A stretch of DNA of 64,000 nt from an uncultured Candidatus Binatia bacterium (lineage in GTDB: Bacteria > Desulfobacterota > Binatia > Bin18): positions 1,312,001 through 1,376,000 of the forward strand of contig OZ241744.1 in assembly GCA_965200965.1 (NCBI GenBank). The letters are read 5' to 3'. How positions within the stretch are numbered: the first letter of the stretch is position 1; each line of letters opens with the position of its first letter. Both the position numbers and the translations under genes were made by a program. This document shows positions 1-5,015 of the stretch, one piece after another. The notes under the pieces are model-generated. The model saw only the letters and a list, made by a program, of their open reading frames with translations. It did not search any database and was not told the DNA's origin.

Positions 1-355
1 CTGTATTCATCACCCCGCGTTCATAAATCCGGGGCGACAGCGACACGACGGCCTGCGACTGGCCGGCTTTATCGGTAGCGATAATTTCGAGCCCAAGGGG
101 CACGGTCCGTAGCGGCCCCGGGGTCACATCAACAACCATGAGCGCCTTGCCCGCCCGCGGCACTTCTTCACAGTACTCGGCAACCGGGTCAAACTGGGTC
201 TGATACAGCGTGATATGCAACAGCGACGCCCCAATCTCTCGCCGACAGGCATCGTTTGGCCCACGGTCCCGGTGCGCCTCTGTCGGCATTCCAACCAGCA
301 GCAGGGCCGCACCAAGTGTCGCCAGCGCTGTTGTGATCCACCCAGCCTCCCTCAT
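1..355 (-). CDS. PmoD/AmoD-like periplasmic copper-binding protein (runs off left edge; not in ORF track)
   Basis: Manual translation from ATG 355: MREAGWITTALATLGAALLLVGMPTEA-HRDRGPNDACRREIGASLLHITLYQTQFDPVAEYCEEVPRAGKALMVVDVTPGPLRTVPLGLEII...PRIYERGVMNT, open to position 1. Signal peptide plus C-x7-L-x-H-x14-C, the spacing of the PmoD Cx7MxHx14C motif. Confidence 0.75.
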   Translation of the reverse strand, partial: MREAGWITTALATLGAALLLVGMPTEAHRDRGPNDACRREIGASLLHITLYQTQFDPVAEYCEEVPRAGKALMVVDVTPGPLRTVPLGLEIIATDKAGQSQAVVSLSPRIYERGVMNT

Positions 356-1048
356 CAGGCTTCATATGGGCCGAAACCAGGCTTGATGTCAAGCGTTTTT
401 TTAGTCTGGGTTCAGCGCTCCCCGTCAGCCTAGTCATACGGCTGTCCGGTTGTCCAACTGAACTAGGCCGCGGCGGACGATCGTCCGCTCGCTGCTCAAG
501 ACGGTTGCTCTTGCTAGCACGCTGCAAATAGCACCCCCAGCACGAATCCGAGGACGACGATAGTGGAAAAATAAACGGCGAAGACATCCGCATCGTCCGC
601 GGCGTGTGGCTCCTGTTGCTCTATTGTGAATGCAAAAAAAGCCACTCAGCTAAATTTACGTCGGCTTCCCATAAGGCTGCCGACATGGTTCCAACCTGTT
701 GTAACCCACCAATTCGTCCATCTTCGGTCGAGGAATTCGACGGTATGATCGTTGACCTTTTTCATTCCAACCACCTTCAGACCAGTTTCACTCCGGTTTC
801 ACTGCTCATGCCTTCTTCTCCGCGGGCGGCGGCGTGGCTTGATCTGATACAACTGTGCGCTGGACTGGCTGATTGCGTAGCCAAAGCTCACCGGGACCGC
901 GTTCCGTAAGTTGCGCCTCTCCTTCAAGGACTTCCAGCGCGACCAAGCGATTCAAGACGAACTCCTCCTCGCTTGCCGCGTCGACCGGTCTTTGTCTATA
1001 CTGCCCATGACTCGCTGGAGACAAGGATTTGCACCTAAGGAGGCGGCT

Positions 1049-2164
1049 ATGCTTTCGGTCTTTTCGGCACCGAGCCACTACATTCAAGGGAAAAACGCCA
1101 CCGCCCAACTGGGCACGGAAATGAAACGGATTGGGCTCGAGGGCCCGGCCCTGATTGTTGCTGGAAAGAGCGCGATTCGGCTGCTGTCCGAGGTCTGGCA
1201 ACAGCATTTGAGCCAAGCCGGGATTCATCACGCTGTGCATCAGTTTGGCGGCGAGTGCTCATATCCCGAGATTGAACGGATCAAGCAAACCGCCCGGGAC
1301 AACACAAGTCGGGTGGTGATTGGGGCGGGCGGAGGAAAAGTCCTGGACGCGGCCCGGGCCGCGGCCGATGACCTCAACCTGCCGGTCGTCAACTGTCCAA
1401 CCATCGCCTCAAGCGACGCGCCGTGCAGCGCACTGTCGGTCATGTACACCGAACAGGGCGTCTTTCAGGAATACCGTTTTTACCGCAAGAACCCCGACCT
1501 AGTGCTGGTTGATACGCAGGTGGTGGCCCAGGCCCCGCCCCGCCTGCTCGTCGCCGGTATGGGCGATGCCCTGGCGACCTGGTTTGAAGCCAGGACCTGT
1601 GTCGAAGGCTATATTCAAAATATGCGTGGCGGCGCGTCAACCCGCAGCGCCGAGAAGCTGGCCGAGCTGTGCTATAATATCCTGGTTGAAGACGGGCCGG
1701 ATGCCCTGCGGGCGGTCGAGAATAACGTGGTCAATCCGGCCTTAGAGCGCTTAGTTGAGGCCAACACCCTGCTGTCCGGTCTGGGCTTTGAATCGTCTGG
1801 ATTAGCGGCCGCCCACGCTGTACATAACGGCCTGACCGAAGCCGCCCAGACCCACCCCTATTATCACGGCGAAAAGGTCGCCTATGGCCTGATGACCCAG
1901 TTGGTGATGGAAGGCAAGCCACGCGCGGTGATCGATCCCGTCCTGCACTTCTGCACCCAGGTCGGTCTGCCGACCACCCTGGCCGAGATCGGTCTTGGGG
2001 CCGATATGCCGCGTGAGCAACTTGAACAGGTCGCCGTCCGCGCCACCGCGGAGGGCGAAACGATCCATAACGAACCGTTTGAGGCCACTCCCGATCTGGT
2101 GGCCGATGCGATTCTGGCCGCGGACGCAATGGGCCGGGCGTGGCAGAGTGCCGCAGCAAGCTGA
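1049..2164 (+). CDS. gldA: Glycerol dehydrogenase (Fe/Zn-ADH family)
   Basis: AAGGAGG RBS before ATG 1049; GGGKVLD, PTIASSDAPCSALSV, GMGDALATWFEA, ESSGLAAAHAVHNGLT, HGEKVAYG motifs. Confidence 0.9.
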   Translation: MLSVFSAPSHYIQGKNATAQLGTEMKRIGLEGPALIVAGKSAIRLLSEVWQQHLSQAGIHHAVHQFGGECSYPEIERIKQTARDNTSRVVIGAGGGKVLDAARAAADDLNLPVVNCPTIASSDAPCSALSVMYTEQGVFQEYRFYRKNPDLVLVDTQVVAQAPPRLLVAGMGDALATWFEARTCVEGYIQNMRGGASTRSAEKLAELCYNILVEDGPDALRAVENNVVNPALERLVEANTLLSGLGFESSGLAAAHAVHNGLTEAAQTHPYYHGEKVAYGLMTQLVMEGKPRAVIDPVLHFCTQVGLPTTLAEIGLGADMPREQLEQVAVRATAEGETIHNEPFEATPDLVADAILAADAMGRAWQSAAAS

Positions 2165-3296: not shown

Positions 3297-5015
3297 TCAG
3301 CCCTCGGGCAGGGCAAACACCAGCAGCGCGCTTCCCTTACTGATAGTGGGGTTTTCACCCACAATGCTGACGACCAGACCGCCCGCCCCGCTGGGGATGG
3401 CCACATACTGGCGGCCACCGACTTTATAGGTGATCGGCTGACCGCGTACCGTTGAGCCGGTCTGGAACTTCCACAACAACTCCCCAGTCGCGTCGTCCAA
3501 GGCCAGCGCATAGCCCTGCTGATTGCCAGTAAACACCAGACCGCCGGCCGTCGCCAGCGCCCCACCGACCATCGGATAGGTGTCTTTATAGCGCCATTTG
3601 ACTTTGCCGCTCGTCGGATCAATGGCCGACAGATGACCATAGGCGGTCCCCAGATCGCCCTGCGTCTCGCCCGGGCCGCCCCCCCAGAACGGGATGCCCT
3701 GGATAAACATTGAGGTCGCTTTTTCCATCTTGCCGCAACTCTCAATCGTCGGCACAAAAATCGCGTGTGCCGTAGGGCTGTAAGCCGCGGCGTAGGAGCC
3801 ATTTTGGCCCCCGACATTGCCAGGACAGATCAACTCAGGGTTGCCGCCCTTCATCGGGACGTATTTGGGGTCAAGCTGCGGCCGGCCGTTTTCATCAAGC
3901 CCCTTGGCCCAGTTCAACTGCTCTACATATGAGGTACCGTGCAGAAATGCCCCACTGTGGCGGTCAAGGATGTACAAAAAGCCGTTCCGGTTCGGCTGGG
4001 CCAGGGCCTTGACGGTTTCTGTCCCGCGTTGGACATCGAGCAGAAACATACCGGTATTCCCGTCATAGTCCCAGATGTCGTGCGGCGTGAACTGGAAATA
4101 CCACTGCAACTCGCCGGTATCCGGGTCCAGGGCAAGCACACAGTTGGTGTACAGATTATCGCCCTCGCGGTTGTCTCCGTTCCAGTCCGGGGACGGGTTG
4201 CCGGTTGCCCAATACAGCAGGTCGGCTTCCGGGTCGTAGGAGCCTGTCACCCAGGTCGGTCCACCACCCTGCTTCCAGGAGTCGCCCTCCCAGGTCTCAT
4301 TCCCGGCCTCGCCCATATTGGGAATCGTGTAGCGACGCCACACCAGATCGCCCGTCCTGGCATCGTAGGCGTCCAGATAACCCCGAATGCCATACTCTCC
4401 ACCGGCGATGCCGATAATGACCTTATCTTTGACGATCAAAGGAGCCGCGGTCACGCTAAAGCCATTGCGATAGTCATCTACCTCGGTATTCCACACCACC
4501 TTGCCGGTCTTGCGATTCAGCGCCAGCACCCGCGCGTCCAGGGTACCCATGTAGAGCAGGTCGCCGGCGATGGCCGGCCCCCGGTTGCCCGGACCGCAGC
4601 AGATCCGCAGGTCCTTGGGCAGCGGATGGTCGTATCTCCACAGCATCTCGCCACTGACCGCGTCAATCGCAAACAGGCTGTTGTAGGCCGCGGTCAGGTA
4701 CAGCACCCCGTCGGCCACCAGCGGAGAGGCTTGCAGCTGGGCCGGAATCCCCGTCTGAAAGACCCAGGCGGCCTGGAGCTGTTTGACAGTGCGGCGGTCA
4801 ATGTCGATTAGCGGGCTGAACCGCCAGCTTTCATAATTGCCGCCGTACATCAGCCAGTCACTCGTGTTCGTCGTCCCCTGGAGCAGCCGCTCGGTAGTTA
4901 CAGACGGCAGACCCTCACCCGCTCCGGCGTGCTGATCGGCCCGCGCACTGACACTCAGCAGCAGCACGACCGCCAGACTGGCTCGACAACTCCACCGCGT
5001 CACAAGGTCCTGCAT
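3297..5015 (-). CDS. PQQ-dependent alcohol dehydrogenase, type I, probably lanthanide-dependent
   Basis: Signal peptide, vicinal ICCG disulfide, GGEYG, TGNPSP, PHDIWDYDG, Trp-docking propeller repeats; no CxxCH heme domain. Start set at ATG 5015, which has a GGAGGGAG RBS. Confidence 0.9.
   Translation of the reverse strand: MQDLVTRWSCRASLAVVLLLSVSARADQHAGAGEGLPSVTTERLLQGTTNTSDWLMYGGNYESWRFSPLIDIDRRTVKQLQAAWVFQTGIPAQLQASPLVADGVLYLTAAYNSLFAIDAVSGEMLWRYDHPLPKDLRICCGPGNRGPAIAGDLLYMGTLDARVLALNRKTGKVVWNTEVDDYRNGFSVTAAPLIVKDKVIIGIAGGEYGIRGYLDAYDARTGDLVWRRYTIPNMGEAGNETWEGDSWKQGGGPTWVTGSYDPEADLLYWATGNPSPDWNGDNREGDNLYTNCVLALDPDTGELQWYFQFTPHDIWDYDGNTGMFLLDVQRGTETVKALAQPNRNGFLYILDRHSGAFLHGTSYVEQLNWAKGLDENGRPQLDPKYVPMKGGNPELICPGNVGGQNGSYAAAYSPTAHAIFVPTIESCGKMEKATSMFIQGIPFWGGGPGETQGDLGTAYGHLSAIDPTSGKVKWRYKDTYPMVGGALATAGGLVFTGNQQGYALALDDATGELLWKFQTGSTVRGQPITYKVGGRQYVAIPSGAGGLVVSIVGENPTISKGSALLVFALPEG

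Follow-up and report, generated by a model that had tools for sequence, protein, structure and literature searches.

The 64,000-nucleotide window analysed here (G000:C1:1312001-1376000, within a single 3.62-Mb contig) begins inside a gene, named xmoD1 in this work, which encodes a membrane-anchored and so far unnamed protein of the PmoD/AmoD family. xmoD1 is a real gene, and it is the first of an operon for a copper membrane monooxygenase (CuMMO), directly ahead of xmoC. No accessory protein is more closely tied to the methane and ammonia monooxygenases than PmoD/AmoD, and the available text of two reports leaves undecided whether it serves as an electron donor, a copper loader or a stabiliser (PMC6189053; PMC13058606). 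The reading favoured here, with a probability of roughly 55%, is that the xmoD1 protein binds one copper and delivers copper to the monooxygenase, or otherwise services it, rather than forming a CuA electron-transfer centre.

Results

A PmoD-family gene at the edge of the window

The initial annotation had pointed to a minus-strand frame absent from the open reading frame (ORF) track, and a listing which admits open ends recovers it. From its ATG start the frame runs for 118 codons (118 amino acids) over window positions 2..355 and continues off the left edge with an open 3' end, which is why the ordinary ORF listing misses it. Completed to the left of the window, the gene encodes 190 amino acids, has no internal stop in this genome and ends in the C-terminal transmembrane (TM) helix which the same annotation had proposed to look for; this hydrophobic segment, encoded left of the window, is modelled as a helix at residues 153-187. 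The translation includes PTEAHRDRGPNDACRREIGASLLHITLYQTQFDPVAEYCEEVP, in which C37 is followed by seven residues, L45, L46 and H47, and then by fourteen residues and C62. The motif, the signal peptide and the histidine at the predicted mature N-terminus had thus been read correctly. As judged from the sequence, the N-terminus comprises a positive n-region, a hydrophobic stretch and T-E-A immediately before H28; cleavage is predicted at this point and would make His28 residue 1 of the mature protein. The parts of the gene are as follows.

Window 2..355, minus strand: xmoD1, PmoD-like gene, first 118 of 190 codons (ORF listing, match to PmoD 6cpd_A, fold match)
G000:C1:1311783-1312355, minus strand: xmoD1, complete gene, 190 amino acids (completed left of the window)
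Window 275..355, minus strand: predicted signal peptide, residues 1-27, consisting of MREAGW, a hydrophobic core and PTEA (sequence reading)
Window 170..274, minus strand: candidate copper-site segment H28...C37-x9-H47-x14-C62 (conservation and phmmer alignment to PmoD)
Window 272-274, minus strand: codon of H28
Window 245-247, minus strand: codon of C37
Window 221-223, minus strand: codon of L45 (column of PmoD Met49)
Window 215-217, minus strand: codon of H47
Window 170-172, minus strand: codon of C62

Membership of the PmoD/AmoD family, as the initial annotation had suggested, is supported by sequence, predicted fold and domain layout. A phmmer search against PDB chains matched PmoD 6cpd_A of Methylocystis sp. 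Rockwell (E 7.3e-8, residues 36-140, 26% identity), and in this alignment C37, H47 and C62 share columns with a Cys, a His and a Cys which are numbered Cys41, His51 and Cys65 in PmoD (PMC6189053). The AlphaFold2 model, based on a 43-sequence alignment (mean predicted local distance difference test score, pLDDT, 80.7), consists of nine strands and then the helix, which begins 2-3 residues past the last strand; the model is weak over residues 21-30, with a mean pLDDT of 52. Foldseek placed 6cpd_A/B at the top (E 3.9e-9, target-normalised template modelling score 0.74), the remainder being generic immunoglobulin-like sandwiches at E 1.2e-4 or worse. VIA-align superposed the model on PmoD 6CPD with Z 14.2 and a root-mean-square deviation of 3.1 A over 117 residues, the next match having Z 8.7. 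Among the features by which PMC6189053 describes PmoD/AmoD proteins, the signal peptide (by sequence reading), the two conserved Cys and the C-terminal TM helix are all found in xmoD1, along with similarity to 6CPD in sequence and fold and a CuMMO in the genome.

Neither Pfam nor NCBIfam has a model for the family, and both the partial and the full protein gave no usable match in either collection. This blank, together with the lack of an evident Shine-Dalgarno sequence, is what could be said for a chance ORF or a decayed gene without product. The probability of that explanation is negligible: a word-based search returned 147 homologs at E <= 1e-3, the 43 which were aligned share 46-90% identity and many invariant columns, synteny is kept in 45/45 related loci, the model is confident and the copy of this genome has no internal stop. 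Conservation rules it out for practical purposes.

Motif class and candidate copper site

The 120 homologs listed by the word-based search, to which all counts out of 120 refer, are 49-100% identical to the xmoD1 protein across the aligned part. None carries a precomputed Pfam domain, and the few which are named appear as 'hypothetical protein' of Binatia, Deltaproteobacteria or Desulfurellaceae metagenome-assembled genomes. The invariant columns of the 43-sequence alignment include H28, R29, R31, G32, D35, C37, R38, G42, L46, H47 and C62. The replacement of the PmoD methionine by leucine, already remarked upon in the initial annotation, is characteristic of the listed homologs: the Met49 column, Leu45 in xmoD1, holds Leu in 111 of the 120, Phe in 8, Ile in 1 and Met in none. 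The key columns read H...C-x9-H...C, and classing by pattern assigned 119 of the sequences to Cx9H and one to Cx8MH. A signal-peptidase-type site, which would place the conserved His first in the predicted mature protein, is present in 119/120; the three residues before this His are AxA in 73 sequences, VxA in 28, SxA in 12, SxG in 3, TxA in 2 and GxA and VxD in 1 each.

Mean column identity peaks in the N-terminal arm, residues 28-36, the most conserved segment of the protein (0.92), and amounts to 0.85 over residues 37-62, 0.74 over the soluble domain (28-150) and 0.73 over the TM helix (151-178). It falls to 0.47 in the C-terminal tail (179-190) and to 0.42 in the signal peptide (1-27), poor conservation being usual for signal peptides. 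Within the helix, W153, Y154, L162 and S174 are invariant in the alignment and P160, R177 and Y178 nearly so.

The arrangement C37-RREIGASLL-H47...C62 fits the Cx9HxnC subclass, with no Met at x7 or x8. What had been taken for a variant motif is therefore, by its C-x9-H spacing, a known class described in 2018 and not a new one (PMC6189053). Moreover, Cx7MxHx14C does not hold as a rule for PmoD, as had been assumed, since Cx7MxHxnC covers 23.6% of the family; the other classes are Cx8MHxnC (13.4%), Cx8MxnC (7.9%), Cx9HxnC (22.2%) and CxnC only (29.0%) (PMC6189053). The conserved His upstream of the first Cys is reported as column H1 in the metadata of the same study, where it is His in 20 of the 27 Cx9HxnC rows displayed (out of 345 occurrences of this class) and Glu in the crystallised PmoD, Met49242_1452. 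One of these 27 rows is flagged as belonging to a CuMMO operon and 26 are not.

The missing methionine bears on whether the protein could be an electron-transfer partner, with a dinuclear CuA-like centre formed across a homodimer by Cys37, His47 and a non-Met axial ligand. Cys37 and His47 align with Cys41 and His51, two of the three CuA ligands of PmoD, and xmoD1 lies in an operon, like the genes of CuA-forming PmoDs. However, the third ligand is gone, Met being found in 0/120 listed homologs. In PmoD, C41S, M49A and H51A each abolish CuA, Cys65 being a non-ligand; CuA formation is limited to Cx7MxHxnC proteins from extended pmo/amo operons, and the copper bound by MettrDRAFT_0370, the Cx9HxnC protein which was tested, shows no CuA features (PMC6189053). 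Since the Met49 column is occupied by Leu, no CuA is expected in the xmoD1 protein; such a centre was rejected as a candidate, for want of a Met at the ligand column, and we regard it as very improbable. All PmoD classes tested bind copper (PMC6189053), and by analogy with its class the xmoD1 protein may be expected to do so too.

In the mechanism favoured here, His28, once freed at the N-terminus by signal-peptide cleavage, and His47 would together bind one copper ion, perhaps with Cys37 if this residue is not tied to Cys62 in a disulfide. The protein would then hand its copper on to XmoB/XmoC or see that their sites stay filled. In a histidine brace, the residue-1 His of a mature protein binds Cu through its amine and its imidazole, and the proposed site would resemble those built on an N-terminal His in CopC, in PCuAC and at CuB of PmoB. 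The PmoD constructs of the 2018 study began with an additional Ser-Met (PMC6189053), with which a site of this kind would be lost. His28 is invariant in the alignment and lies directly after the predicted cleavage site, in a region of low confidence in the AlphaFold2 model.

The CuMMO operon

The initial annotation had taken xmoD1 for a stand-alone copy; the completed sequence instead places it first in an operon with the order D-xmoC-xmoA-xmoB-multicopper oxidase. The stop of xmoD1 and the ATG of xmoC are 49 nt apart, AGGAGG lies 7 nt ahead of the latter, and a scan found no terminator-like site between the two genes. The genes of the operon, and those which follow it, are listed below.

G000:C1:1310894-1311733, minus strand: xmoC (AmoC 3e-42)
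G000:C1:1310057-1310860, minus strand: xmoA (AMO 2.6e-54)
G000:C1:1308513-1309769, minus strand: xmoB (Monooxygenase_B 2.6e-77)
G000:C1:1306715-1308610, minus strand: three-domain multicopper oxidase, 631 amino acids (Cu-oxidase_3/_2 and Cu-oxidase)
G000:C1:1305950-1306711, minus strand: smaller multicopper-oxidase-like gene, 253 amino acids (weak Cu-oxidase_2, 3.7e-4)
G000:C1:1305055-1306005, minus strand: F420-type luciferase-like oxidoreductase (Bac_luciferase 2.5e-57; TIGR03619 262.7 bits)
G000:C1:1304316-1304708, minus strand: CusF (CusF_Ec 3.8e-10)
G000:C1:1303156-1304319, minus strand: LarC-type nickel insertion gene (Ni_insertion 1e-142)

The gene order was compared across 45 loci, namely those which encode a relative of xmoD1 among 62 pattern matches in contigs from one genome per species. 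Their titles are mostly Candidatus Binatia, the others being Enterobacteriaceae, Klebsiella, Methylomirabilota, Thermodesulfobacteriota, Proteobacteria and delta proteobacterium; the closest relatives of the present genome are uncultured Binatia. The D gene is followed directly by xmoC in 45/45 loci, then by xmoA in 44/45 (the contig of L037 ends there), and xmoB is present in 42/45 (L031, L033 and L037 end early), so that every missing xmoA or xmoB coincides with a contig end. The large multicopper oxidase is found in 34/45 loci, and a second paralog of the D gene, here D2, follows xmoB in 29/45.

That the genome encodes a CuMMO had been predicted, and it does: its only AmoA-family match lies immediately downstream of xmoD1. 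The observation that no pmoB lies directly upstream is also correct, the upstream gene being a divergent one of the glycerol dehydrogenase family. The proposal that the gene heads a copC/copD cluster fails, since no match to CopC, CopD or PCuAC was obtained in this 99.3%-complete genome, and it was rejected. xmoD1 is the only PmoD-like match in the genome, and its two Sco genes are at ~784 kb and ~975 kb, >300 kb from xmoD1.

None of XmoA, XmoB and XmoC comes near the cut-offs of the NCBIfam equivalogs. Their PDB matches span chains of both particulate methane monooxygenase (pMMO) and ammonia monooxygenase (AMO), with E from 3.5e-44 to 8.9e-33 for XmoA and from 1.4e-55 to 1.1e-39 for XmoB. XmoB retains a predicted N-terminal His29 plus H133/H135, and XmoC retains D137/H141/H154 and N211/H215/H229, residues which we take to be equivalent to the pMMO copper ligands. 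The available text of PMC8262859 names pMMO copper ligands as His33/137/139.

The fixed place of xmoD1 in the operon also speaks for its main rival as an explanation, namely that the protein is a stoichiometric or stabilising membrane subunit whose helix packs on XmoC/XmoA, copper being secondary. The D gene is first in 45/45 loci, the helix carries the invariant and near-invariant residues named above, and its conservation matches that of the soluble domain (0.73 vs 0.74) and lies well above that of the signal peptide (0.42). As just 2-3 residues lie between its last strand and the helix, the domain would rest at the surface of the membrane, and structural stabilisation is among the possible PmoD roles (PMC6189053). 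Against this, the extra helix of one pMMO structure has been assigned to a 23-residue ORF, and CuMMO operons without a D gene exist in the same class. A prediction of the complex of XmoC, XmoA, XmoB and the mature xmoD1 protein (ipSAE 0.00 in two runs, made without controls) speaks neither for nor against a subunit. We consider the subunit role unlikely as the main function, and it can coexist with the copper handling favoured here.

Paralogs and Sco fusions

D2 lies between xmoB and the multicopper oxidase (L007-L047, e.g. L007:9763-10425). Like xmoD1, it has a His after an AxA-type site, C-x9-H...C without Met and a TM helix, and it is 28-34% identical to the xmoD1 protein. It is absent, with no remnant, from this genome and its closest relative, L006. 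A quick tree gathers the xmoD1 clade, including the Sco-fused protein P0121, on one branch (Shimodaira-Hasegawa-like approximate likelihood ratio test, SH-aLRT, 99); it joins the clade to D2 weakly (SH-aLRT 89), and a Binatia-specific duplication is not established.

A profile search of 1.84 billion representatives returned 491 proteins at E <= 1e-3. Among the best matches is P0121 (393 amino acids), named 'SCO family protein [Candidatus Binatus sp.]'. In P0121, P0269, P0274 and the ORFs L048:5908-7080 and L049:5947-7089, the PmoD-like domain with its TM helix leads into another hydrophobic segment and then into a SCO1/SenC domain (PF02630, 1e-16 to 1e-20). The L049 ORF equals P0269 in Pfam scores and length; P0274 is one further fused form from a search of longer proteins, in which a blank is weak evidence. 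The fused gene directly precedes xmoC in both L048 and L049. A CxxxC motif (CPGVC) is present in P0121 and P0269, the two fused sequences which were read, and the SCO1/SenC domain of the fused relatives also gives weaker Redoxin and AhpC-TSA matches. Separately, P0270 (388 amino acids; cluster of P0132) is a tandem PmoD-PmoD protein in which each domain is followed by a TM helix and the second domain is D2-like.

Sco proteins are known for building the CuA of cytochrome oxidase, and the natural fusions point to copper handling rather than electron transfer. They can also be read in terms of thiol chemistry, in which the protein would act in the periplasm as a thiol-disulfide partner or a reductant of Cu(II), its Cys37/Cys62 pair cycling in concert with Sco-type proteins so that copper, or the ligands of the enzyme, stay reduced. 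In favour of this are the two invariant Cys, disulfide-bonded in the 6CPD crystal (PMC6189053), the fusion of relatives to a thioredoxin-fold SCO1/SenC domain with its weaker Redoxin and AhpC-TSA matches, and a 'Near AhpC-TSA' neighbourhood column in the 2018 metadata (PMC6189053). However, the fold of the protein is a cupredoxin-like sandwich and not that of thioredoxin, the invariant His28 and His47 would be left unexplained, and copper is bound by all the PmoD classes tested in that study; the explanation is improbable.

Co-occurrence with the monooxygenase

The association was surveyed in 301 genomes of the class by comparing lists by hand; the genomes are related, hence the counts describe an association and are not statistics. 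A D-like match is found in 59/301 genomes and an AmoA in 68/301, all 59 falling within the 68, so that none of the 233 genomes without AmoA has a D-like match.

In many related genomes the chromosome carries another AmoA-family gene at a different place, with no PmoD-like gene next to it; this gene scores ~205-212 bits vs ~180 for the type of the xmoD1 operon. Other families of the class have a far more canonical AmoA (up to 379 bits) and the usual CAB-D order. Among 8 PmoD homologs located after pmoB in pMMO-like, more canonical operons of other Binatia, 5 combine H1 with Cx9H, 1 is Cx8MH and 2 are unmatched by the pattern.

Flanking genes

Two further features occupy the window next to xmoD1.

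Window 356..910, no strand: intergenic region, presumed promoter region of the divergent xmoD1 operon and glycerol-dehydrogenase-family gene (ORF listing)
Window 911..2164, plus strand: glycerol-dehydrogenase-family iron-type alcohol dehydrogenase (Fe-ADH 3.8e-28; NF006941 491 bits, cut-off 336)

No ORF with family support was found in window 356..910. The true start of the dehydrogenase gene is probably later than 911, as its family match begins at residue 47-48. The gene is upstream and divergent in 31/45 related loci, at 78-96% identity, and is more conserved than the PmoD-like gene; the alcohol formed by the CuMMO may be the substrate of its enzyme. About 3 kb upstream of xmoD1 lies a gene for a dehydrogenase of the methanol/ethanol family which depends on pyrroloquinoline quinone (window 3378-4904, minus strand; above the cut-off of TIGR03075 with 594.6 bits). 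The genome has five genes of this kind in all, and this one is found upstream in 5/45 loci, all close relatives.

On the other side of the operon, the nitrite reductase, CopA and laccase NCBIfam matches of the large multicopper oxidase are all far below cut-off (the oxidase pair, G000:C1:1305950-1308610, corresponds to L003:7950-10610). Past the oxidases, the F420-type oxidoreductase, CusF and the LarC-type gene (L003:5156-8005) continue on the same strand.

Within xmoD1 itself, 36 nt (window 88-123) recur exactly at G000:C1:1842298-1842333 (L002:1501-1536), in a DprA-like ORF 530 kb away, where they supply the filler in an in-frame insertion of 72 nt with a perfect direct repeat of 38 nt at its flanks. 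Contigs of 3/4 runs (X1, X6, X11) skip the 72 nt; in X3, just 58-60-nt contigs touch the insertion junctions, with <31 nt per side. The 72 nt may be a templated insertion peculiar to a strain; otherwise they are an artefact of assembly.

Discussion

The copper-handling reading draws on the invariant His28 and His47, the class to which the protein belongs, its place in the operon and the Sco fusions of its relatives. Several points weigh against it. Copper binding, the ligand residues and the direction of transfer are all things which we infer. The relative position of His28 and His47 is not given by the model, since residues 21-30 have a mean pLDDT of only 52, and Cys37 would not be a ligand if the disulfide of 6CPD holds in the xmoD1 protein. 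The conservation of the TM helix, equal to that of the soluble domain, fits a structural subunit as well. Only four distinct Sco-fused sequences have been seen. As for expression, the ATG of xmoD1 has no evident Shine-Dalgarno sequence, and a sigma-70 consensus scan returned 0 sites, so that the promoter was not located. Furthermore, a D-like match is missing from 9/68 genomes with AmoA, namely G247 and G299, which are only 80% complete, and seven f9 genomes with a completeness of 91-95%. Where a genome has two AmoA matches (e.g. G110, G102, G034), both D-like matches are beside one operon and none is beside the other. The D gene is thus not needed by every CuMMO of the class.

Comparison with characterised systems helps to place the protein. 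PmoD of Methylocystis sp. Rockwell (Met49242_1452, 6CPD) shares with it the signal peptide, the cupredoxin-like domain, the two Cys and the C-terminal TM helix, and is likewise encoded with a CuMMO operon; xmoD1, however, has Leu for Met49, His rather than Glu at H1, and a gene which lies ahead of xmoC and not after pmoB, the canonical position within the operon being after subunit B. The Cx9HxnC homologs of methanotrophs (MettrDRAFT_0370, MCA2130) have the same C-x9-H...C spacing, which puts xmoD1 in their class by motif; their genes are described as often near copC and, in the rows displayed, lie mostly outside CuMMO operons, whereas xmoD1 is first in its operon and its genome has no copC match. 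AmoD and AmoE (orf5/orf4) of ammonia oxidisers, as far as the available text of PMC13058606 and PMC6189053 goes, are PmoD-family proteins encoded, like xmoD1, in the monooxygenase cluster; they follow amoB (amoCABED / amoCABD) and carry Cx8MHxnC (amoD) or Cx7MxHxnC (amoE), whereas xmoD1 precedes xmoC and has no Met. D2 of the related Binatia operons has the layout and the operon of xmoD1 but comes after xmoB. SCO1/SenC chaperones, finally, are periplasmic, membrane-tethered, copper-handling proteins which are fused to a PmoD-like domain in relatives, whereas the xmoD1 protein itself has no Sco domain (no Pfam match) and the Sco genes of the genome are distant.

The PmoD family and the Cx9HxnC motif class were already known. 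What is new is the first-gene position (45/45 loci), the use of the non-CuA Cx9H class within an operon for a CuMMO, the pair formed by xmoD1 and D2, and the Sco fusion. Three peptide motifs of the xmoD1 clade are absent from six supplementary files of PMC6189053, and the string 'dcab' has 0 occurrences in its neighbourhood metadata, although Supplementary Figure 8 may show further arrangements; the clade and its gene order are therefore not in the 2017-18 dataset. According to the available text of PMC8262859, 5/11 CuMMO-bearing Binatota genomes encode pmoD and the operons are drawn as CAB, CAxB or CAxxB; its main text, supplements aside, mentions no gene before pmoC. Transcription of pmoA by sponge-associated Binatota has been described, and pmoD is not mentioned in the available part of that report (PMC9999580). 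A limited literature search found no paper joining PmoD with the histidine brace, and none on a pmoD-before-CAB gene order.

A bolder version of the copper-handling reading, possible although on balance doubtful, would make the PmoD proteins with H1 and Cx9H dedicated copper insertases for CuMMOs, with a mononuclear site of histidine-brace type formed by His28 and His47 and with copper handed by the membrane-tethered domain to XmoB/XmoC in a relay with Sco-type thiol chaperones. If this were true, the relay would have left its mark on the genomes in the Sco fusions and in the unvarying first place of the gene in this type of operon, and PmoD, whose role has been open since 2018, would gain a concrete and testable function.

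Conclusions

The clade described here adds to the family a non-CuA (Cx9H) PmoD whose gene looks obligatory at the head of a CuMMO operon across a whole bacterial class. It allows ~150 'hypothetical proteins' without a Pfam or NCBIfam model to be named. In this genome, the protein accompanies a divergent CuMMO whose substrate candidates are methane or short alkanes, and the genome, with a single PmoD homolog and no CopC, CopD or PCuAC match, offers a minimal system in which the contribution of the protein may be tested cleanly.

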